Shown one piece after another: positions 39,102 to 54,842 of a stretch of DNA of 64,000 nucleotides; positions within the stretch are counted from its first letter, which is position 1; each line of letters starts with the position of its first letter. Source of the stretch: a virus; IMG/VR virus record IMGVR_UViG_3300017987_000009, positions 27,589-91,588 of that record; one strand, given 5' to 3'. A program made the position numbers and the translations under genes. The notes under the pieces are model-generated. The model was not told the DNA's origin. It did not search any database and saw only the letters and a program-made list of their open reading frames with translations.

Positions 39102-40700
39102 ACACGCCGCCCGGCAACAGGGCGCCCCTGAGGCCAACCTCGCCGCGCCAGCGAGAAGCCGAGAGCGACCGCGACGAAGGAGCGCGGCACGCCGCGCGCA
39201 CAGCGACGAACGCGACACCGGGCACGGCACACGGCGGCACTCGAACCCCCGCCTGCCGGCCAGCCTCGCGCCGGCCGCCACACGCCCGACAACGCGCGAC
39301 TCCTACCCGCACCACGCGCCGACACCACGTACGCCGCGACTCCCACGACACACACGCCGCCTGGACGCGACGGCAGCCGCGGGGGGCGAATATCGACCGG
39401 GACAGGACCGGCTCCGGCCCGGAGCCAGGCCAGGGGCCAGGCCTCCGGCGCGTCGTCGACGCCGACGTCGCCAGCCGCGACGCGTCGGGCGCTCGGAGCC
39501 GCCGCCCGCCTCCGGCTCGGAGGGCGCGGCGCAAGCCCTCGTAACCGTTGCGCTTTCCCGTCCAGCCGCGACGGCGGCGCGACGGGCGCGGTTCTGTGAC
39601 GCCGCGAGCGCGCGGTCACGCGTCGCCGACGAAGTTCGTGGTCCTCGTGGCGCTACCTGCAGCAACACGCGCCAGCACGCCCCCCCCCCCAGTGCCCAGG
39701 GAAGCGCGGCGCGACCTCGGATTGATGCCGTGCCTGCCCCGCGCGGCGAGCAGGACTGGTCGCGCGGAGATTGGGTCGCGGGACGGAGAGAGCGAGAGGT
39801 TGCGCGCACTTGCGGCGGCGAGCGGCGCGGGGCGGCGGGTCCGTGGCGGGCCGGCGGCGGCTCGCGCGACGTCCCGGTGGCGCGCCCCGGGCGCGCCCCA
39901 GGGGGGGGGGCGTCCCCAGGCGGGGCCGCTGGCCGGGCGCGCGGCGGGCGGGCCTGTGGCGACGCAAGTGCTTGTTTTCGTGGGCGAAAGGCGTGCGCGT
40001 GGCGTTGGCGGGCCGGTGCGCCGGCGGGGCGCCGGCGGGGCGCCGTCTGGCCGCGAGGCCAGAGGTGCTGCGAGTGCTGCGAGCGCCGGCCTGGAGGGGC
40101 GGGGCGCAAGTGCCTGGAATCGCTGGCTCCGTCCGTGGCGCGGGCCCCGCGGCGTCGGCCGCCGGTCCCGGCGCGCGGCGCCGGCCTCCAGCCTCGAGGC
40201 GGCGGCGCGTCGGCGGCGCGAGGGCGGCCGCGGCGGTGCGTGGCGGTGCGTGGCGGTGCCAAGGGCGGCGGGGTGCGGCAGGTGCGGCATAGCGCGCGGC
40301 CGGTCCCGGGGCGGCGCGCCGGCCGGCCGGCGGGAAGGGCGGTTCGGCGCCGGCGGGGCGGCGACGTCGGCCCGTGCCGCCTCCGGCCCGGGCGGGCGTA
40401 CGTTCCGCCGCCGGGTCGCCCGCGGCGGACACGGGCGCTCGTGGCCACCCGTCGCGCGGCAGCGCGGAAACCGCTTGTTTTCGCGGCCCGGTTGGCGGTG
40501 GCGCGCGACGAGCGCGACGTGCGCGCGCGGGAGTGGCAAGTTTTCGCTAGTTATTACAATAGCTTGCCGAAAGTAGCGGTTTTCGCTTCTAGATTGGCTC
40601 TCGCTGGCGCTCGCGACGCGGACGAGAAAGCTAGTGGTTACGATAGTTTGTAAATCTCTTGACAAGTCGCTGTGTACACACGCGCTTGTCTGGTCATAAT
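39102..40700. other. Long, extremely GC-rich, apparently non-coding region
   Basis: Only R/P/A/G-rich shadow ORFs; C/A-skewed first part, G-skewed second part; C11 and G10 runs; ends in an AT-rich block. Confidence 0.7.
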
Positions 40701-40710
40701 AATACTTATG
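40540..40710 (+). promoter_or_regulatory. AT-rich control region upstream of the probable early operon
   Basis: TTGACA (40659), CATAAT (40695), imperfect 30-bp palindrome 40661-40690, 21-bp direct repeats at 40546 and 40630. Confidence 0.65.
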
Positions 40711-40737
40711 GCGCAGTCAACGACAAGGAGCGAGACG

Positions 40738-41637
40738 GTGACGGGAATGAAAGAGATCAAGTTCGGAATCGAGATCGAGACGGTGGGCGCGGGTCGCGAG
40801 CGCGTCGCCCGCGGGATCGCCGGCGCGATGGGCTGGACCGCGCGCGTCGACTACCACTGCACGGTGCGCGACGACCGCGGCCGCGACTGGAAAGTCGTGA
40901 CAGACGCGTCGCTGTCCTACAACGGCGCGGAGGTCGTCAGCCCGGTCCTCGAGTACTCCGACATGGACACGCTGCAGGCCGTCGTCCGGGCCGTCCGCCG
41001 GGCCGGCGCGCGCGTCGACTCGACGTGCGGCATCCACATCCACGTCGACGCGGCCGCGTTCGACACCAAGGCGATCGTGAGGCTCGCGAAGCTCTTCTAC
41101 CGGAAGGAGCGGATGCTGAAGCACGCGCTCGAGGTCATCCGCTCCCGCGGCGACCGGTACGCGTGGGACATGAACGCGCGCGGCTTCATGGACCGCCTCC
41201 TCTCGCGGTCGCGGCCGCCCAAGACCCTCGACGAGCTCAACCGCGTGTGGTACGGCCAGCGCGCCGTCTACGACCCGGCCCGCTGCAGCGACCACTACAA
41301 CTCGTCGCGCTACCACGCGCTCAACCTGCACAACGTGTGGTACCGCGGCACCGTCGAGTTCCGGCTCTTCAACTCGGTGCTCCACGCCGGCAAGGTCAAG
41401 TCGTACGTCCAGTTCTGCCTCGCCATCGCGGCCAAGGCGATCAACGCGCGGTCGGCGAGCGCGAAGCGCGGCTACGAGTTCGACCCCGAGAACGCGCGCT
41501 ACGAGCTCTGGTGGTTCCTGCACGAGCTCGGCCTGGTCGGCGACGAGTTCAAGGTCTGCCGCCACCACCTCACCTCGCACCTCAAGGGGACGAGCAAGAA
41601 GCGGACGCAGAACGGGAGCGCGGCCGCGGCCGCGTAG
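40738..41637 (+). CDS. Putative amidoligase (Amidoligase_2, COOH-NH2 ligase fold)
   Basis: FGIEIET, WKVVTDASL, EVVSPVL, STCGIHIHV, RYHALNL, GTVEFR; AAGGAG 7 nt before GTG 40738. Confidence 0.9.
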   Translation: MTGMKEIKFGIEIETVGAGRERVARGIAGAMGWTARVDYHCTVRDDRGRDWKVVTDASLSYNGAEVVSPVLEYSDMDTLQAVVRAVRRAGARVDSTCGIHIHVDAAAFDTKAIVRLAKLFYRKERMLKHALEVIRSRGDRYAWDMNARGFMDRLLSRSRPPKTLDELNRVWYGQRAVYDPARCSDHYNSSRYHALNLHNVWYRGTVEFRLFNSVLHAGKVKSYVQFCLAIAAKAINARSASAKRGYEFDPENARYELWWFLHELGLVGDEFKVCRHHLTSHLKGTSKKRTQNGSAAAAA

Positions 41638-41649
41638 GGGCGCGGCGCC

Positions 41650-41697
41650 CCCGCGGCACGGTGCGGGACGGCGGTTCGACTCCGCCGCGCGGGGCCA
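41650..41697 (+). ncRNA. tRNA-like minihelix (T-arm + acceptor stem + CCA)
   Basis: GGCGG-TTCGACT-CCGCC T-arm directly followed by GCGCGGG-G-CCA, pairing 6/7 with CCCGCGG; no D or anticodon arm. Confidence 0.5.
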
Positions 41698-41723
41698 ACG
41701 AAGCACGGACAAGGAGGAGCGAG

Positions 41724-41951
41724 ATGCTGCTATTCGGAAAGTGGGAGATCAGAGGACGGGAGACGACGGTGGTGGCGGACCGCGGCCGGATTGAGCTGGC
41801 GATCCGCAGCCTGCTCGGCACGGCGACGATGCCGGGGCAGTTCGCGCGCACGTCGTTCACGCCGCGCGACGCGCGCAAGCTGGCGCGCCAGCTCGTCGAC
41901 GCGGCCGACGCGACCGAGGGGCGGATCGGCGTGTCGCGGAGGGCGGTCTGA
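41724..41951 (+). CDS. Hypothetical protein
   Basis: GACAAGGAGG RBS; coupled to next gene. Confidence 0.6.
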   Translation: MLLFGKWEIRGRETTVVADRGRIELAIRSLLGTATMPGQFARTSFTPRDARKLARQLVDAADATEGRIGVSRRAV

Positions 41952-42340
41952 TGCCGTCGAGGAACGAGACGGTCCGCCGGAAGTTCAAGAGGGACGAGGT
42001 CGCGTGGGTCGCCCGGCAACTCGGCGTCGACCGCGCGACCGCTTTCCGCGTCATGCGGCGCGCGTGGCTCGGCGCGGCGGAGGCCTTCGGCTGGGAGCGC
42101 GCCAACGGGCTCGGCTTCCGGGTCGAGACGACGGAGCGGCGGCACCGCACCTCCGTCGTGGTCAGCGTGACGAGCGCGGTCCGCGGCTGGTCGGGCCGGG
42201 ACCACAACCACAACCGGGTGTCGCGCCGCGTGTACCGCGCCGGCGACACGCACGCGCCGACCTTCGATGGGCAGCGCAACATCAACGCCGTGGGCAACGG
42301 CGTCGAGTACCGCCGCGGGCCGGCTCGGGTGGCGCGGTGA
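41951..42340 (+). CDS. Hypothetical HTH-like protein (paralog of 43775-44062)
   Basis: RRKFKRDEVAWVARQLGVDRATAFRVM. Confidence 0.6.
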   Translation: MPSRNETVRRKFKRDEVAWVARQLGVDRATAFRVMRRAWLGAAEAFGWERANGLGFRVETTERRHRTSVVVSVTSAVRGWSGRDHNHNRVSRRVYRAGDTHAPTFDGQRNINAVGNGVEYRRGPARVAR

Positions 42341-42649
42341 CCCGTAGGTTCCTCACGACGGTCTTCGTGCTCGTCCGCTTCGCGGTGGCGAGCGCGACGC
42401 CGGCCGCCGACTGGTCGGCGAGCGTCAACAACAACGGCGGCGGCTTCGTCGCGGTAGAGGAGAAGAGGTAGTGCAGACGTCTCGACGCGCGCGACCGGTC
42501 GGCGGAGCGGATCTCGCTGACTGCGCCATCATTCAGCCCGTCCCGGCTGCCGGCCGGTCGGGCGCGTCGAGACCGACTGCGTCGCACCTTGGTGCGGCGC
42601 GGGCCAAAGCCCGGGCACGGCGCCCGGCACGGACAAGGAGGCGAGAGCA

Positions 42650-43045
42650 ATGACACGCAAGGAGATCGTATGGATTGCGCGGGAGATCGTGGGCCAGATG
42701 AGCGACGACGACCGAGCGGGGTACACGCGGTGCGGGTGGCGAGACGGCGTGGCGATGATGCTACGCGACGATTGGGCCGGCGCGGACCTGGATGACGTGC
42801 TCGACTCGATCGACGACGAGATCGAGGCCGGCCGACCTCGATACACGACGAGCGGCCCCGTCAGAGGATCGTGCGGCCACTACCACCGCACCATCGAGGC
42901 GGCGGTGCGGTGCCTCGAGCGGGATCGCGCGGGGTGTCGGCGGCAAGGCGGGTACTCCGACCGCGAGGTCCGGTACGCTGACGGCTCTCGGCTGACAGAG
43001 GCCGACTACCAGTCGGCGCTTGGAGCCGAGAGAGGCGCGCGATGA
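42650..43045 (+). CDS. Hypothetical protein
   Basis: GACAAGGAGG RBS; GSCGHYHRTIEAA..C..GGYSDR motif. Confidence 0.6.
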   Translation: MTRKEIVWIAREIVGQMSDDDRAGYTRCGWRDGVAMMLRDDWAGADLDDVLDSIDDEIEAGRPRYTTSGPVRGSCGHYHRTIEAAVRCLERDRAGCRRQGGYSDREVRYADGSRLTEADYQSALGAERGAR

Positions 43046-43338
43046 TGACCGAGAAGAAGATGGAGTCCTTCCTGTACGGCGTGTTCGAGGCGCTCGCGTT
43101 CGGCGAGAGCGACGAGCTGCCGGAGATCCTCGCCGGCGCGCTGTACGCCGACGGCGAGAGCGGCGGCGACTCCGCGGTCGAGGCGTCGGCTGTGCTGCGC
43201 GACTTCCGGTGGGACACGTTCGAGGAGAAGGGCGTGCTGACGAGGGACCGCGGGCTGGTCGTGAGCTTCGGCGACGGCCGCGAGTTCCAGCTGACGGTGG
43301 TGAGGTCGCGGTCGCGGCCGGCGCGCCGGCGGCGATGA
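43042..43338 (+). CDS. Hypothetical acidic protein
   Basis: TFEEKGVLTRDRGLVV...DGREFQLTVV; coupled start. Confidence 0.6.
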   Translation: MMTEKKMESFLYGVFEALAFGESDELPEILAGALYADGESGGDSAVEASAVLRDFRWDTFEEKGVLTRDRGLVVSFGDGREFQLTVVRSRSRPARRRR

Positions 43339-43396
43339 CCTCAAGCCGGCGCGGCCGTGGGCGTGACAAGCCCGCTGAACGGACAAGGAGACAGCG

Positions 43397-43687
43397 ATGA
43401 CGAACAGGAACGACAACATCCAGGTAGGTGACATGGTGCGCAGTTTTGATTTTCCGACGCTCAACCGGAGCGAGGTTGGCGAGGACGCGTGCTACGTCGA
43501 GGGAGAGGTCGTGGAGTTTAGGCGGATTGAGGGTCGCACGCGGTACGTGATCCGGGCGACCCGGCGCGTGTTCGGCGGCAAGGAGGTCGAAGCGGAGCAG
43601 CGCAATTTTTACCCGCCTGTCAACGGCACGCCGTGCGCCTTCGGACGGAGCGTGACGGACGGCGTGGAGAAGATCGAGGCTAACTGA
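43397..43687 (+). CDS. Hypothetical SH3-like protein
   Basis: IQVGDMVRSFDF...CYVEGEV; GACAAGGAG RBS. Confidence 0.6.
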   Translation: MTNRNDNIQVGDMVRSFDFPTLNRSEVGEDACYVEGEVVEFRRIEGRTRYVIRATRRVFGGKEVEAEQRNFYPPVNGTPCAFGRSVTDGVEKIEAN

Positions 43688-43688
43688 A

Positions 43689-43748
43689 GTCGAAACGCGG
43701 CAGAGTGTCGCCGCGTCGGGCACGTTGGCAACGTGCCCCTGACGAGAC
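43689..43748 (+). ncRNA. Type II hammerhead ribozyme
   Basis: GTC-GAAA-CGCGGC(loop)GCCGCG-TC^-GGGCACGTTG(G)CAACGTGCCC-CTGACGA-GAC: complete core, stems I/II/III paired, GUC cleavage after 43717. Confidence 0.9.
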
Positions 43749-43774
43749 AGCCAACAGGACAAGGAGGAACGGAG

Positions 43775-44062
43775 ATGTCGAGGCAACAGAGACAGCAGAC
43801 GGTAGAGCGGCGGAAGTTCCGCCGCCTCGAGGTCGCGTGGGTCGCGCGGCTGCTCGGCGTCCGCCGGGGCAAGGCGCTGCGGATCATGGACAAGGTGTAC
43901 CGGGAGGCCGAGCGCGCCAACGCGAAGACGTGGTGCGTGCGGTCGGTGGCGAAGGCCGGGCAGGTCGGCGTGCGGCTCGGCCTGGAGATGGCGAAGGACG
44001 ACGCGCGCGTCCCCGCCGGCGGCGGCCTGACGCTGGGCCGCGCGTACTTCAGGGAGGCGTAG
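43775..44062 (+). CDS. Hypothetical HTH-like protein (paralog of 41951-42340)
   Basis: RRKFRRLEVAWVARLLGVRRGKALRIM; GACAAGGAGG RBS. Confidence 0.6.
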   Translation: MSRQQRQQTVERRKFRRLEVAWVARLLGVRRGKALRIMDKVYREAERANAKTWCVRSVAKAGQVGVRLGLEMAKDDARVPAGGGLTLGRAYFREA

Positions 44063-44063
44063 G

Positions 44064-44960
44064 ATGGGACGGAGGAACGGCAAGAAGCCGCTCGAGGGCC
44101 GGCAGCTGTACTTCGCCTTCGGGTCGAACCTCGTCGCGCGGCAGATGCGCGAGAGGTGCCCGTCGTCGCGCCCGGTGTCGCGGGCGCGCCTCGACGGGTG
44201 GCGGATCGCGTTCGGCGGCCACTCCGGGTCGTGGGACGGCGCGGTCGCCGACGTCGTCCGCGAGGCCGGGGCGTGGGTCGACGGCGTGCTGTACGAGCTG
44301 TCGGCCGCCGACGTCTACGCGCTCGACGCCTTCGAGGGCCACCCCTACGCGTACCTGCGGCGCCAGCTCGCCGTGGCGACGCCGCGCGGCCGGCGCGTCA
44401 AGGCGTTCGTCTACGCGCAGACGGGGCTCGCGATGTTCACGTCGCGCGTGTCGCGCGTGTACTACAAGCGGATGTACGACGCCTACCGGCGGCTCGGCTT
44501 CAACGTGTCGCCGCTGGCGCGCGCCCGCCTCGAGCACGACCGCGAGGTCGACGATCTGATCGCGGAGGACACCCACCGGGTGTTCGTCTACGGCTCGCTC
44601 CTCCGGGGCGAGGGCAACGACGGGTTCCTCCGCGGCTCGTACCTGGTCGGGAAGGCGCGGACCGCGCCGGGGTTCGAGCTGTTCGACCTCGGCGCGTACC
44701 CGGGCATGGTCGCGCGGGGGACGACCGGGCAGGTCGCCGGCGAGGTGTACGAGGTCGACACGCTGACGCTGGCTAGCCTCGACCGCCTCGAGGGCCACCC
44801 GCGGTTCTACCGCCGGACGACGATCCGGCTGGAGGACGGCGACGTGGTCGAGACCTACCTGTTGCAGGACCACCACGTCGCGGACCGCGAGCGGGTCGCG
44901 ACGGGAAACTGGCGCCGCAGGGAGCGGCGCGGAGGAGAGGAGGTGCGGCTTGTTCATTAG
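44064..44960 (+). CDS. Tandem gamma-glutamylcyclotransferase (two AIG2/GGCT domains)
   Basis: LYFAFGSNL...LDAFEGHP..Y and VFVYGSLLRG...LDRLEGHP.FYRR. Confidence 0.9.
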   Translation: MGRRNGKKPLEGRQLYFAFGSNLVARQMRERCPSSRPVSRARLDGWRIAFGGHSGSWDGAVADVVREAGAWVDGVLYELSAADVYALDAFEGHPYAYLRRQLAVATPRGRRVKAFVYAQTGLAMFTSRVSRVYYKRMYDAYRRLGFNVSPLARARLEHDREVDDLIAEDTHRVFVYGSLLRGEGNDGFLRGSYLVGKARTAPGFELFDLGAYPGMVARGTTGQVAGEVYEVDTLTLASLDRLEGHPRFYRRTTIRLEDGDVVETYLLQDHHVADRERVATGNWRRRERRGGEEVRLVH

Positions 44961-45195
44961 AAGCACGGAGGACGGCCGCGTGTTCGGCGGCACCGCTGTC
45001 GAGATCGTCGAGTCGATGCGCGGAGAGGCGTTCACGACCTCGCGCACTGTCGGCGAGTACGTCGACGAGCTCGTGGCGAGCGTCAAGCGCCTGCGCGGCG
45101 TCGACCTGGAGGTCGGCGACGGCTGCGACGCCGACAAGGCCGAGAGGTTCGTCGACGCGATGGTGGACGCCGGGCTGTTCGAGCACGCGGACTGA
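44950..45195 (+). CDS. Hypothetical protein
   Basis: GGAGG RBS; overlaps the GGCT end. Confidence 0.55.
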   Translation: MFIRSTEDGRVFGGTAVEIVESMRGEAFTTSRTVGEYVDELVASVKRLRGVDLEVGDGCDADKAERFVDAMVDAGLFEHAD

Positions 45196-45196
45196 C

Positions 45197-45251
45197 GCAG
45201 AAACCGCCCCGCCACGGGGCGGTCGCCGGGTGGCTCCCGGCCTGACGACGC
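45197..45251 (+). ncRNA. Second type II hammerhead ribozyme
   Basis: GCA-GAAA-CCGCCCCG(CCA)CGGGGCGG-TC^-GCCGGG(TGGCT)CCCGGC-CTGACGA-CGC; core intact, C.A mismatch at the first stem II pair; cleavage after 45224. Confidence 0.8.
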
Positions 45252-45284
45252 ACGCCGGCTAGCCGCGGCGGAAAGGACAAGAAG

Positions 45285-46475
45285 ATGGATCTGATGAAGG
45301 CAAGCAACCAGTGGTCGAGCCGGCCGGCCGACGAGACCTTTTGGGGCCTCGACGACGCGCAGGTGGCGGCGCTGGCTATGAAGAACGCGGCGCGCGAGGC
45401 GAAGGACGTGCCGTACGACGCGCTTCACGTCGAGGCGATCGACGGGGAGCTCGCGCTGGTCGGGCAGTCGGGGAAGCCGGCGTTCCCGACCTTCAGCGCG
45501 ACGGGGCAGCTGTGCGCCCGGGCGAGGTTCCCCCACTCGGTCGCGGCGCGCCAGCCCGCTCAGCTCGCGGCCGACAACATCAACTGGGGCCTCGGGGAGC
45601 GGCTCAAGGCCAGGAGCGGCGACGAGAACGGCGACAGCTGCGTGCTCCTCCTCCACAAGGGGGACGAGCGCCTCGGGCTGCGCGCCATGACCAGCGAGAA
45701 GTACGAGCGGCTGTGGCACTCCGACCTGCTCGCGCGCACCAGGTCGATGCTCGGCTCCGGCTGGCGCGTGCCGCCCGCTCGCCCTTCGCCCTCGCGGTGC
45801 GCCGACCCGCGGATCCGGCCGGCCACCGAGGACGACATCCGCGGGATTGAGGGGCTGACCTCCATCGGGGTCGGCGACACGATCGGGCCCGCCGGCGCGT
45901 ACGTGTCCGACAAGGACATGTTCGTGTTCGTCGTGAACAAGAACGCCATCGACGGGCCGAGCGGCGGCCTGTCGCGGTTCGCCTTCCTGTTCAACAACGA
46001 GATCGGCACCGGGTCGTGGGGCTTCACCTTCGGGTACTTCGACCACGTCTGCGGGAACCACATCGTGTGGGGCGCGCAGGGCGTCAAGGAGATCCGGGTG
46101 CGCCACGTCGGCGAGGGCTCGTTCGAGGACGGCGTCGGCAAGGTCGTGTGCGAGCTGCGCGAGTACGCCGACAGCGCGGCGTCGCTCGACGAGGCAGGGC
46201 TGAAGCGGGCCGCGACCCTCGAGCTCGGCGCGACGCGGGACGAGGTCGTCGAGGCCGTGTTCGAGTTCGCCCGCAAGAAGCGCGTGGGCGAGCTGAGCGA
46301 GAAGCGGATCAAGGCGGCGTACGACCGGGCCGTCGAGGCCGACCGGTACGGCGCCCCGAACACGCCGTGGGCCATCTCATCCGGGCTGACCGAGCTGAGC
46401 CAGGAGACGGCGTTCGCCAACGAGCGGCTCGGCCTCGACCGCGCCGCCGGCCGCGTGCTCGAGATGGCGTTCTAG
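45285..46475 (+). CDS. DUF932-like protein
   Basis: W..RP.DE.F, LRAMTSEKYERLW, YVSDKDMFVF, N.EIG, VCGNHIVWG, RH pattern. Confidence 0.6.
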   Translation: MDLMKASNQWSSRPADETFWGLDDAQVAALAMKNAAREAKDVPYDALHVEAIDGELALVGQSGKPAFPTFSATGQLCARARFPHSVAARQPAQLAADNINWGLGERLKARSGDENGDSCVLLLHKGDERLGLRAMTSEKYERLWHSDLLARTRSMLGSGWRVPPARPSPSRCADPRIRPATEDDIRGIEGLTSIGVGDTIGPAGAYVSDKDMFVFVVNKNAIDGPSGGLSRFAFLFNNEIGTGSWGFTFGYFDHVCGNHIVWGAQGVKEIRVRHVGEGSFEDGVGKVVCELREYADSAASLDEAGLKRAATLELGATRDEVVEAVFEFARKKRVGELSEKRIKAAYDRAVEADRYGAPNTPWAISSGLTELSQETAFANERLGLDRAAGRVLEMAF

Positions 46476-46569
46476 CAGCGCGAGTCGCGCGAGCGACCGT
46501 TGCCCCGCCGCGACCTTGGCCGGCGCGGCGGGGGCCAAGCGGCACGGTGCCGCGGACAAGGAGGACGAC

Positions 46570-46761
46570 GTGACGAACGAGGAGCGGAGGAACAGGGTTA
46601 GGCGCCGGCAGCGGGCGCGGGAGCGCGAGGACGCGCGGCAGCTGTCGACGACTGAGGTCGAGCGCATGGTGAGCGACGCCGCGATCGCGGCCGAGCTGTT
46701 CGGCGAGGACGGCCTCGAGGGGTTCGCCGCGGCGCTGCGGCGGGAGAGGAGGCGGGCGTGA
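46570..46761 (+). CDS. Hypothetical protein
   Basis: GACAAGGAGG RBS before GTG 46570. Confidence 0.55.
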   Translation: MTNEERRNRVRRRQRAREREDARQLSTTEVERMVSDAAIAAELFGEDGLEGFAAALRRERRRA

Positions 46762-47453
46762 GGGCGGTCGGCTACATCCGAGTGAGCACCGACGAGCAGG
46801 CCGAGCACGGCGTCGGCGTGGAGGCGCAGCGAGACAGGATCGCCGCGTACGCGCGCCTGTACGACCTCGAGCTCGTCAACGTGCTCGTCGACGAGGGCGT
46901 CAGCGGGTCGGCGGCCGAGAGGCCGGGGCTCCGCATGGCGACCAACGCGCTAGAGGACGGGCACGCGGAGGCGCTGGTCGTGGCGAAGCTAGACCGCCTC
47001 ACCAGGTCGCTCCCCCACCTGCTGTCGCTGATCGACGAGTACTTCGGGGAGCGGTTCACGCTGCTGAGCGTCGCCGAGCAGCTCGACCCGCGCACGGCGA
47101 GCGGCCGCCTGGTGATGAACATCCTGGGCGCGGTGGCGCAGTGGGAGCGCGAGACGATCAGCGAGCGGACCAAGGCCGCGCTCGCGTTCAAGCGGTCGCA
47201 GGGCGAGTACACGGGCGGCGGCGTGCCGTTCGGGTTCCGCCTCGACCACGCAGGGCGGCTGCGCCGCAACATGTGGGAGGCGCGCGCGATCGACGAGGCG
47301 CGGGCGCACGCCGGCCGCGGCCTGTCGCTGCGGCAGATTGGGCGCGCCCTCGAGGCCGACGGGTTCTTCCCCCGCGCGAGCGGGAGGTGGAGGGCGAAGC
47401 AGGTGTCGCGCCTGCTTCGCGAGGACAACCACGAGACAAGGAGGCTAGGATGA
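46758..47453 (+). CDS. Serine recombinase (resolvase family, short recombinase C-domain)
   Basis: GYIRVSTDEQ catalytic Ser, DEGVSG..RPGL, KLDRLTRS, AQWERETISERTK, PFGF. Confidence 0.93.
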   Translation: MRAVGYIRVSTDEQAEHGVGVEAQRDRIAAYARLYDLELVNVLVDEGVSGSAAERPGLRMATNALEDGHAEALVVAKLDRLTRSLPHLLSLIDEYFGERFTLLSVAEQLDPRTASGRLVMNILGAVAQWERETISERTKAALAFKRSQGEYTGGGVPFGFRLDHAGRLRRNMWEARAIDEARAHAGRGLSLRQIGRALEADGFFPRASGRWRAKQVSRLLREDNHETRRLG

Positions 47454-48975
47454 ACAGAGACAAGGAACTGGCGCGCGCGCTGATCGCGGCGCGCAACCTG
47501 CTGGACCGGGCGCTGGTGATGGCGCACCACGGCAGCGACTGCGAGTGCGACGGGTGCTTCGGCCTGCGTGACGAGCTGAGCGCGCTGCTCGGCGACGAGC
47601 CCGACGGGTACTGCGCGCCCGACCGCTCGCTGTCGCGAAGCTTCGTCGAGGGCCTGGCGCGCCTCGACGAGAGGCGCACTGGCGCGCCGGCGTTCGAGCG
47701 AGAGGACGCGCGGCCGTCCGAGAACTTCGACCTGCTGCACGGGTACCAGGTCGTCAGGTCTCGGGACCTGTCGCTAAGGGAGCGCGTGCGAAGAAGCCGG
47801 ATCGTGCTGGTCGACCGCGGCGACCGCGAACGGCCGGCGGGCCTGCCGCGGTTCCAGCGGTACGTGACCGCGCTGCACTACTACGGCGACGCGGAGTGGA
47901 CGTGGGGCCACTACTACTCCGACTTCGAGCGGGCGAGCGACGAGTTCGACCGTCGTGTCGAGAGGGGGTTCTGATGTGGGTGTTCACGACGCAGGGCTTC
48001 TACTCGATCAACCGCACGCCCGACGGCGAGCGGCTCCAGCTCCGCGCGCGAGTGCGCGAGGACATCGACAAGTTCCGCGAGAAGTACTGCCCGTCGCTGG
48101 GCGAGACGATCGAGCTCGGCGGGACGGACTACCGGTACCGTGCGGAGGCGAGCGAGCGCGCTCTTGCCGCCGCGATGGTGCTGGTGGTCACGGACGTCAA
48201 CTACCAGGACTTCAAGAACGCGGTCGAGGACAGGCGCCTCGGCCGCCACAACGCGTACCTCGGGGTGTGGAAGATTCTCCGCCAGTACCTCGAGCTCGTG
48301 GAGGAGGCCGACCGTGACGATTAGGTTCACCGACGGGATGGAGTTCGACACGAGCGGCGAGCTCCGCAAGGTCAAGCGGTCCGACGGCTGGTACGTGGTC
48401 GGCGACGGGATGCTGGTCCCGGTCGGCGGCCCGGAGGAGGCCGACGCGTTCATCGACAACTTCACCAAAGCCAGCGAGGAGGGACGGGCGAGATGACGAG
48501 ACGACGAGTCAGGGTCGACGAGGACGAGCAGCGCGTGTGCCCGGTCTGCGGGCGCGTCGTGCCCGCGAGCCGCGGCGACGACAAGTACTGCTGCGGCGAC
48601 GCGCACGAGCTGGAGTACCTGCGGGAGCGCGTCAAGGAGCAGGACGAGCGGATCGCGCGGATGTCCCGCAAGAAGGGGCCGATCCAGTGCCTCGGCCAGG
48701 TGCGCTGGTCGACCTGTGTGCAGGAGTGGTACCTCAAGGACTCGTACGACGCGAAGCGCCGCGCGGTCGAGCTGCGCAAGCTCGGCTACGTGGTGGCCGC
48801 GTCCACGATCGGGAGGATGCCGTTCGCCTGCGAGGGCGACGGCGGGACGGCGGCTTGGGTGAAGGTGACGATCTTGACGGCCGTGAAGGATGACGGCTCG
48901 GGCGAGGCGCCGCCTCCGCCGGGCGTGTTCGTCGACGGCATCAGGACCAACGGCAACGAGAGGAGGACGCGATGA
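47450..48975 (+). other. Four coupled hypothetical genes (47450-47974, 47974-48324, 48314-48496, 48493-48975)
   Basis: Overlapping start/stop codons with RBSs. Confidence 0.6.
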
Positions 48976-53330: not shown

Positions 53331-54842
53331 GTGCGCGGCGCGGAGGTCATACCCCTCGTGCGGGGGGCGGCGAAGAAGCTCGACAAGCTGGAGCGGTCGC
53401 AGCTCGAGACCGTCTACGAGCAGTACCGCACCGCCTCCAACGAGTGGCTGCGCCGCCAGATCGTAGAGAACAACCGGATCGACATCCTCGCGAGCGTGGT
53501 CCTGGGCTACGACGTCGAGCCCTTCCACCTCGCGATGATGCAGTGGCAGTTCCTCCACCCCGAGTCGCTGCAGCTCTCGTTCCGCGGCGGCGGCAAGACG
53601 ACGGTCTGCACCGTCGCCAAGGCGATCCACTACCTGTGCAAGAACCGCGACCTCCACATCCTGCTCGCGTCGGAGAGCAAGGGCACGGCGTCCGGGTTTC
53701 TTCGGGAGATCAAGGGCCACCTCGAGGGGAACGAGCGGCTGATCGAGGTGTTCGGCCCGTTCTACGACCCGAAGGTCGTGGCGAAGTGGGACACCTACGA
53801 GATCGACGTCGTCGGCAAGGCGACCGGCTCGAAGGAGGCGAGCGTCACCTGCATCGGCGTCGACGCGTCCATCACGTCCAAGCACTTCGAGGTCGCGCTG
53901 ACGGACGACCTGGTCGTGGAGAAGAACAGCCGCACCGAGGCGACGCGCGAGCAGGTAAAGAACTGGTTCTACCACACGTACACGCCGCTAATCATGCCGC
54001 CGCGCCCGGGCGTCGAGCACTGCGGCGAGCACCACATCCTCGGCACGCGCCAGTGCCCGGAGGACCTGTACGAGCACCTCCAGGAGAACGAGCTCAAGGA
54101 GCACGCCCAGACGATCCCCGCGCTGGACGAGCGCGAGAACTCGCCGTACCCGAAGCTGTACCCGCCGGCGTTCTTCAAGAAGCAGCGGCGGAAGATGGGC
54201 GTGCTGCGGTTCGGCGCGCAGTACCAGCAGGACGTCGAGGCGATGCGCGGCGAGGTGTTCCAGCACAACGACTGCATCCAGCTCGACGCCGAGGAGTACC
54301 CCGCGCTCACGCGGCTCAAGGTCTACATGGGCGTGGACATGGCGGTCGGCGACAAGGAGAAGAACGACTTCTTCGCGATCTCCGTCGTCGGCATCCTGGG
54401 CTCGATCCGCAAGGACGACTTCTTCTCGTACCTGCTGGACTACTACCTCGAGCACCTTCGCGCGTCGCGGCAGGAGGCGAAGGTGCTCGAGTTCTACGAC
54501 AAGTGGAAGCCGCTGCGGACCGGGGTCGAGATCAACCAGTACCAGGACATCCTGCGGCAGACGCTGAAGGAGAAGCGGCCGGGTATGGTGGTCTATCCGA
54601 TTCATACGCAGCTCGACAAGACTACGCGCGCCTGGAAGCTGGCGCCGCTCGTCGAGGGCCACCGCATGTTCTTCCTCGGAGACGGCGTCCACGCGCGGCC
54701 GATCGACCACCTCGTGAGGTTCCCCAACGGCAGGGGGACGAAGGACTACTTCGACTCGCTGGACAACGCGATCCGCGCGGCGCGGCGGAAGGCCGGCCGC
54801 AAGCGGCCGGAGCGGAAGAAGTTCGGACTGATAGGAGGCTAG
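53331..54842 (+). CDS. terL: Terminase large subunit
   Basis: FRGGGKTT Walker A, ALTDD Walker B, GTR coupling motif, F..QYQQ, MGVDMA and DYFDS nuclease aspartates; precedes portal. Confidence 0.92.
   Translation: MRGAEVIPLVRGAAKKLDKLERSQLETVYEQYRTASNEWLRRQIVENNRIDILASVVLGYDVEPFHLAMMQWQFLHPESLQLSFRGGGKTTVCTVAKAIHYLCKNRDLHILLASESKGTASGFLREIKGHLEGNERLIEVFGPFYDPKVVAKWDTYEIDVVGKATGSKEASVTCIGVDASITSKHFEVALTDDLVVEKNSRTEATREQVKNWFYHTYTPLIMPPRPGVEHCGEHHILGTRQCPEDLYEHLQENELKEHAQTIPALDERENSPYPKLYPPAFFKKQRRKMGVLRFGAQYQQDVEAMRGEVFQHNDCIQLDAEEYPALTRLKVYMGVDMAVGDKEKNDFFAISVVGILGSIRKDDFFSYLLDYYLEHLRASRQEAKVLEFYDKWKPLRTGVEINQYQDILRQTLKEKRPGMVVYPIHTQLDKTTRAWKLAPLVEGHRMFFLGDGVHARPIDHLVRFPNGRGTKDYFDSLDNAIRAARRKAGRKRPERKKFGLIGG

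Follow-up and report, generated by a model that had tools for sequence, protein, structure and literature searches.

The stretch analysed here (the window, 64,000 nucleotides) was taken from an IMG/VR virus record of 91,588 bp, of which it covers bases 27589-91588; the record has direct terminal repeats and a G+C content of 68.5%. The source is an uncultured tailed phage that encodes a DnaE-type polymerase, DnaB, a portal protein and a terminase (53331-54842); this terminase shares at most 25% identity with its counterpart in any cultured phage. The replication module is separated from the terminase and portal genes by a gene run that starts with an amidoligase gene (PF12224 match, E 4.6e-53) and continues through small genes without a family to a hammerhead ribozyme, HH1, beyond which follow the genes for a 95-aa protein, a tandem GGACT protein, an 81-aa protein, a DUF932 protein and a resolvase. 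Homologues of the amidoligase in cultured or named phages all fall below 41% identity and belong mostly to gut Firmicutes phages, and the N-terminus of the 95-aa protein is paralogous to the product of the gene at 41951-42340 (BLASTP E 8e-11). The main features of the region are the following.

40533-40703, + strand: promoter-like, AT-rich zone at the head of the gene run
40747-47453, + strand: gene run in which amidoligase (PF12224), tandem GGACT (PF06094), DUF932 and small serine recombinase are combined
41650-41697, in the spacer after the amidoligase gene: look-alike of the top half of a tRNA (mini-tRNA), found with a descriptor of our own
43397-43687, + strand: upstream gene, 96 aa, without a family; GC3 0.81, TGA stop at 43685-87
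43688-43756, + strand: HH1, type II hammerhead, full match to RF02276
43757-43777, + strand: leader GGACAAGGAGG (Shine-Dalgarno), a GGACAAGRAG match, with the ATG at 43775 of the downstream gene
43775-44062, + strand: downstream gene, 95 aa; GC3 0.97, ATG at 43775
44064-44960, + strand: tandem GGACT (gamma-glutamyl cyclotransferase-like) gene; PF06094 E 4.8e-41, phrog_2520
45197-45265, + strand: HH2, type II hammerhead candidate, partial match to RF02276 at 45200-45248
46758-47453, + strand: resolvase (recombinase) gene near the block between HH1 and HH2
16730, 23059, 33029, 41707, 42631, 43381, 43757, 45275 and 46554, + strand: leader GGACAAG(G/A)AG before start codons

The + strand genes have GC3 values of 0.81-0.98 and the long - strand ORFs across HH1 look spurious, so that HH1 is on the coding strand and its spacer is truly intergenic. 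Within 40000-48500, four sigma-70-like sites were found where 0.2 were expected, all of them inside the zone at 40533-40703, and a consensus scan gave neither promoter-like nor + strand terminator-like sites between 40.75 and 48.5 kb. This pattern is consistent with one long transcript across the gene run, and from these consensus scans we infer that the run is expressed as a polycistronic message; early expression of the genes flanking HH1 is plausible. The ATG at 43775 is preceded by AAGGAGG. The sequence GGACAAGRAG has 10 matches in the window as compared with 0.3 expected, mostly directly 5' of start codons, and GGACAAG(G/A)AG may represent an extended Shine-Dalgarno sequence or another conserved signal for translation or processing.

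By its sequence and predicted fold, the element at 43688-43756 is a genuine and complete type II hammerhead ribozyme. An earlier note on this DNA had claimed such a ribozyme and named a Rfam Hammerhead_II search as the means of checking it. In that search, the model (RF02276, clan CL00010) matches HH1 on the + strand over all of its positions (1-66 of 66) with 45.8 bits, above the gathering score of 37, and the E-value is 1.3e-8 in a 251-nt scan and 3.4e-6 when reckoned for the 64-kb window, both strands and all 4227 families. HH1 was found by Rfam scans with permissive filters; that a default gathering scan of the 64 kb missed it is an artefact of the speed filter. A pattern for the hammerhead core only has two matches in the window against an expectation of 0.19, and a descriptor that requires both hairpins has two in the 91.6-kb genome against 0.14 expected from Markov shuffles. 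Our own descriptors found no further hammerheads in the genome, those of type I and type III included. The permutation of HH1 is that of type II, with stems I and III closed by loops and stem II open, and its parts are arranged as follows.

43689-43691, + strand: stem II 3' strand GUC (C11.1 = 43691), which pairs with GAC at 43746-43748 (G10.1 = 43746)
43692-43694, + strand: core G12 A13 A14, from the sequence and the RF02276 alignment
43695-43716, + strand: stem III hairpin, in which 43695-43701 pair with 43710-43716 (7 bp: A15.1-U16.1 and six G-C pairs) around an 8-nt loop
43717, + strand: C17, aligned to the GUC of the model; predicted scission at 43717/43718
43718-43738, + strand: stem I hairpin, 7 bp, loop UUGGCAA
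43725-43729, + strand: loop I UUGGC, pseudoknot partner of the tail GCCAA at 43750-43754
43739-43745, + strand: core C3 U4 G5 A6 C7 G8 A9 (CUGACGA), from the sequence and the RF02276 alignment
43746-43748, + strand: stem II 5' strand GAC, from the sequence and the RF02276 alignment
43750-43754, + strand: 3' tail GCCAA, which starts 1 nt after stem II and pairs with loop I

All 13 core positions are canonical (C3 U4 G5 A6 N7 G8 A9, G12 A13 A14, A15.1-U16.1, H17), and so are the pairs that adjoin the core, namely G43718-C43738 (1.1-2.1), G43746-C43691 (10.1-11.1) and A43695-U43716. The sequence at 43689-43748, the order of the core and the GUC/GAC stem II are as they had been described, and cleavage after 43717, as predicted in the earlier note, agrees with the alignment of C43717 to the GUC of the RF02276 model. 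Other parts of that description need revision. The element had been taken to end at 43748, but the match runs to 43756, since the 3' tail pairs with the loop of stem I. Stem I, given as 9-10 bp from a plain fold, has 7 bp and a 7-nt loop in the family fold; stem III, given as 6 bp, is parsed here as 7 bp, A15.1-U16.1 included.

The 5-bp pseudoknot between loop I and the 3' tail (UUGGC/GCCAA), which is absent from the first description, corresponds to the RF02276 family consensus, in which at least 4 bp form right after stem II (PMC3088659), and the tail of HH1 is aligned to the AGCCaAAg of the model at high posterior probability. According to Perreault et al., this tertiary contact is characteristic of type II hammerheads and critical to rapid cleavage (PMC3088659). 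In contexts of 69 to 400 nt, stems III and I form with pair probabilities of 0.81-1.0, the lowest value (0.81) being that of A15.1-U16.1 and all others at least 0.97; taken separately, in contexts up to 400 nt, stem III has values of 0.81-0.98, and the first 8 pairs of stem I do not fall below 0.97. For the 3-bp stem II, nearest-neighbour models give probabilities of 0-0.23 in long contexts and so do not predict it, which is to be expected for a junction held by core and pseudoknot contacts that such models ignore.

HH1 is a clean, fresh example of an element type that has been known in phage spacers since 2011, and not a new kind of element. When viral contigs were searched with the 3' half of the type II pattern alone (loop motif, core, stem II and tail), 98 loci were recovered, 54 of which carry a complete type II hammerhead, representing 49 distinct sequences. 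The loop I and tail pairing partners of HH1 recur in these 49, the design of which is near-identical to that of HH1, while their stems I and III are diverse in sequence and 4-13 bp long. Membership was judged by the curated RF02276 model; in our own alignments MAFFT misaligned the variable stems. With 49 distinct viral hammerheads of like design, HH1 is, as had been claimed, a textbook case of its type, and its family is widespread among phages.

The placement of HH1 also follows the family. HH1 fills its spacer: the Rfam match starts 1 nt after the end of the upstream TGA (43685-87), and the ATG at 43775 lies 20 nt after the tail. For the 49 viral hammerheads, these distances were measured with a simple script of our own that works without proper gene calls. 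In 39 of them a Shine-Dalgarno sequence and start codon lie within 60 nt downstream, the median distance from the tail being 24 nt. An upstream frame of at least 60 codons is present in 36, and the median distance from its stop to stem II is 2 nt. In 25 of these 36 the stop is found 0-4 nt before the ribozyme, and for HH1 and HH2 the distance is 1 nt. These stop and start distances indicate that viral type II hammerheads occupy the entire intercistronic spacer, and the placement of HH1 (1 nt and 20 nt) is typical of the type II family. In the main text of Perreault et al. (PMC3088659) we found no figures for this spacer-filling placement.

HH1 has a weaker counterpart 1.5 kb away on the same strand. 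HH2 scores 29.3 bits with RF02276, below the gathering score of 37, and aligns to model positions 5-56 only. Its core is intact, with a stem III of 9 bp, a stem I of 6 bp and predicted cleavage after C45224; at the base of its stem II, a C.A mismatch adjoins the core and is followed by 2 bp. Its loop I, UGGC(U), is able to pair with GCCG at 45254-57 or AGCC at 45261-64. The probability of its stem I drops from 0.99 to 0.04-0.10 once 45253-45270 are included, and a competing fold, with a hairpin between CCCGG 45237-41 and CCGG 45255-58, reaches -45.1 kcal/mol as compared with -30.9 kcal/mol for the active fold, a gap of about 14 kcal/mol. As the competing fold wins after 45253-45270 has been made, HH2 may be active only briefly during transcription, or weakly, or never.

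Together, HH1 and HH2 bracket 43718-45224 (1507 nt), a block of three genes that encode the 95-aa protein, the tandem GGACT protein and the 81-aa protein. A cluster of hammerheads is recognised by two or more copies that share the coding strand, lie a few kb apart at most and surround a gene or a short block of genes; HH1 and HH2 have this arrangement, with HH2 below threshold and mispaired next to its core. Because HH2 is both below the Rfam threshold and thermodynamically outcompeted, the idea of a bracketed block has a doubtful partner.

HH1 belongs to the type II hammerheads by family membership, anatomy and placement. On this basis we consider it quite likely that HH1 self-cleaves a polycistronic phage mRNA, leaving hairpin-capped ends; together with HH2 it would delimit the three-gene block. 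In a long + strand transcript, stems III and I would fold and the 3-bp stem II would close the junction, and pairing of the UUGGC loop with the GCCAA tail would hold stems I and II parallel. The RNA would then cut itself between C43717 and G43718. The upstream product would end about 30 nt past its stop codon with the G-C-rich stem III hairpin plus one base and a 2',3'-cyclic phosphate; the downstream product would open with the stem I hairpin, the first base of which would bear the 5'-OH, and would have a 57-nt leader with an exposed Shine-Dalgarno sequence. The 57 nt that the earlier note counted from the cleavage site to the next start codon thus coincide with this leader, which ends at the ATG at 43775, and the 5'-OH, hairpin-first message that it expected follows from hammerhead chemistry and the anatomy of HH1, as the probable outcome of the predicted cut. 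With the weaker HH2 (45200), HH1 may release or delimit the block, the stability and translation of which would be uncoupled from those of the neighbouring cistrons, likely with a stability of its own.

We infer that cleavage occurs in vivo, on a polycistronic transcript, and that the new ends affect stability. In bacterial mRNA decay, 3' exonucleases and polyadenylation are hindered where a message ends in a hairpin that has no free 3'-OH tail, and a 5'-OH end within a hairpin evades attack by RNase E or RNase J that depends on a 5'-monophosphate. RiboJ is an engineered insulator from a satellite-RNA hammerhead of a different topology; HH1 resembles it by functional analogy only, in that it could give the downstream cistron a defined 5'-OH and a terminal hairpin whatever lies upstream. 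For phage hammerheads, Perreault et al. proposed that long transcripts are processed into operon- or gene-length mRNAs (PMC3088659). Type II hammerheads with the pseudoknot are common in bacteria and prophages, where they are clustered around gene blocks, and three tandem arrangements were cleaved during in vitro transcription, one of them also in E. coli (PMC3088659). The purpose of such hammerheads was still listed as unresolved in a 2019 review (PMC6765202).

The role of HH1 could differ from this in a few ways. First, HH1 could be real but its cleavage conditional, with a terminating ribosome covering stem II, the GAAA core and part of stem III; cutting would then scale with translation of the upstream gene and, for HH2, also with the speed of transcription. 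Such a dependence would accord with the stop that lies 0-4 nt before the ribozyme in most viral examples and at 1 nt in both elements here, and with an active fold of HH2 that exists only in the nascent transcript, and regulated cleavage has been raised for phage hammerheads by Perreault et al. (PMC3088659). However, the tight spacing of the stop may merely reflect genome compaction, we found no alternative hairpin of HH1 with the stop codon that would hide the cut site, and stems III and I keep probabilities of at least 0.97 with 200 nt of upstream context. Moreover, as cleavage is irreversible, transient occupancy by a ribosome would delay rather than prevent cutting. We therefore regard conditional cleavage as unlikely.

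Second, HH1 could be an inactive relic or a chance look-alike, the hairpins of which serve RNA stability, protein binding or termination. The retention of the motif in relatives bears on this reading, and no locus orthologous to HH1 was retrieved from the viral contigs, genome contigs and metagenomes searched, so that no orthologue was seen to retain the motif. The upstream gene has two relatives in viral contigs, L002 (66% identity) and L003 (48%), and a hammerhead is absent after both; by tblastx, the L003 record shares nothing else with the source phage, and it contains no credible hammerhead. For the 95-aa downstream protein, viral contigs hold no relative and a family profile found nothing in viral or genome contigs; its homologues in a large protein collection (P0002-P0004) have 74%, 46% and 44% identity. 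Neither the DUF932 relatives (28% identity) nor the metagenome relatives of the GGACT protein (30-41% identity) have hammerheads nearby, and none of the 98 viral loci with the 3'-half pattern carries a homologue of any gene of the HH1 run.

The spacers of the gene run are, in addition, all G+C-rich and prone to hairpins, which would favour a chance likeness, and those other than that of HH1 match no Rfam family and fold no better than shuffles. In a relic, decay of the core would be expected, but every core base of HH1 is canonical, the family pseudoknot is intact and the window-wide E-value is 3.4e-6. HH1 as an intrinsic (Rho-independent) terminator was considered and rejected: neither hairpin is followed by a T-run (a U-run in the RNA), and no terminator-like site was called within 43688-43774. 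A relic or look-alike is thus very improbable.

Finally, excision of the 1507-nt 43718-45224 by HH1 and HH2, with circularisation by a host RtcB-type ligase or joining of the flanking exons, is the least probable reading by our estimate, for although the two cuts would leave exactly the ends that RtcB can ligate (5'-OH and 2',3'-cyclic phosphate), and Perreault et al. considered that clustered phage hammerheads might yield spliced or circular products, they sought such products and did not detect them (PMC3088659), the phage genome has no RtcB gene, the halves of HH1 and HH2 cannot form a chimeric hammerhead because their stem II strands are not complementary, and HH2 is below threshold and misfolds in the full transcript. 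That a host RtcB-type ligase might close the excised three-gene RNA 43718-45224 into a circular phage mRNA resistant to exonucleases is likewise a highly speculative and improbable extension. A milder and better-supported reading is that the gene run is punctuated by interchangeable RNA-processing marks, namely the mini-tRNA at 41650-41697 and the two hammerheads, with cutting gated by upstream translation or by transcription speed.

The mini-tRNA has an acceptor stem of 7 positions (6 pairs and a G.G mismatch), a 13-nt linker, a T-arm of GGCGG-UUCGACU-CCGCC, G73 and CCA. Its descriptor has this sole match in the genome and none in 300 shuffled genomes, a significance that comes mostly from the CCA, as 84 of the 300 shuffles pass when the CCA is left out. 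ARAGORN called no tRNA at 41650-41697, and none of 185,579 species genomes contains an exact match to the 3' part, which hence gives no clue to the host. It is possible that the mini-tRNA is an RNase P or RNase Z processing signal in the hammerhead gene run.

Two further spacers of the run have features of their own. A non-coding gap of 309 nt lies at 42341-42649, where the ORF 42471-42653 lacks GC3 bias; a long, near-palindromic hairpin at about 42474-42580 gave only weak, microRNA-like Rfam matches on both strands. After the DUF932 gene, 46476-46569 holds a 10-bp G-C hairpin with the loop CUUGGC, which is complementary to GCCAAG directly 3' of the stem; this pairing of loop and tail resembles that of the hammerheads, but the spacer lacks a hammerhead core, matches no Rfam family and folds with a z-score of -1.2.

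Self-cleavage of a polycistronic mRNA at HH1, the reading that we prefer, can be compared with several known systems. With the type II hammerheads with pseudoknot (RF02276, PMC3088659), HH1 shares the core, the permutation and the short stem II, and nothing structural sets it apart from the members of RF02276; what differs is the source, an uncultured phage of 68.5% G+C without a close relative in the collections searched. Clustered prophage hammerheads are known from the ardA locus of Agrobacterium tumefaciens and from Clostridium scindens and Azorhizobium caulinodans (PMC3088659). Like these, HH1 and HH2 bracket a small accessory block on the coding strand, about 1.5 kb in size and with a recombinase gene nearby; unlike in these, the block comprises a tandem GGACT gene within an amidoligase/DUF932 run, and HH2 has a C.A pair in stem II, a strong competing fold and doubtful activity.

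Two other systems have been studied experimentally. In Desulfovibrio vulgaris, three type II hammerheads of the same Rfam family (loc 1-3) lie near phage-like genes, two of them close together, and their minimal 3' fragment of 39 nt has the same length as 43718-43756 of HH1 (PMC8782182). All three cleave in vivo and in vitro (cyPhyRNA-seq, PMC8782182). The D. vulgaris copies are thus experimentally proven elements of chromosomal prophage regions, whereas HH1 is known from its sequence. The HHphage of haloviruses HF1 and HF2 is located 13 nt 5' of the start codon of an early helicase gene (PMC3088659) and, like HH1, lies just 5' of a start codon in a polycistronic unit; in the haloviruses a transcript 5' end maps near the cleavage site. 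High salt is required by HHphage, a structural variant (PMC3088659), whereas the structure of HH1 is canonical throughout.

The present analysis adds a canonical intercistronic self-cleaving RNA from a phage lineage without a cultured or sequenced close relative. With a strong HH1 and a weak, misfolding-prone HH2, the locus would be a convenient test case for the role of phage hammerheads in gene expression. Across the family, stop codon, ribozyme, Shine-Dalgarno sequence and start codon follow each other with almost no spare bases, and this placement rule predicts that the ribozymes would set the ends of two messages, the 3' end of the preceding and the 5' end of the following one.
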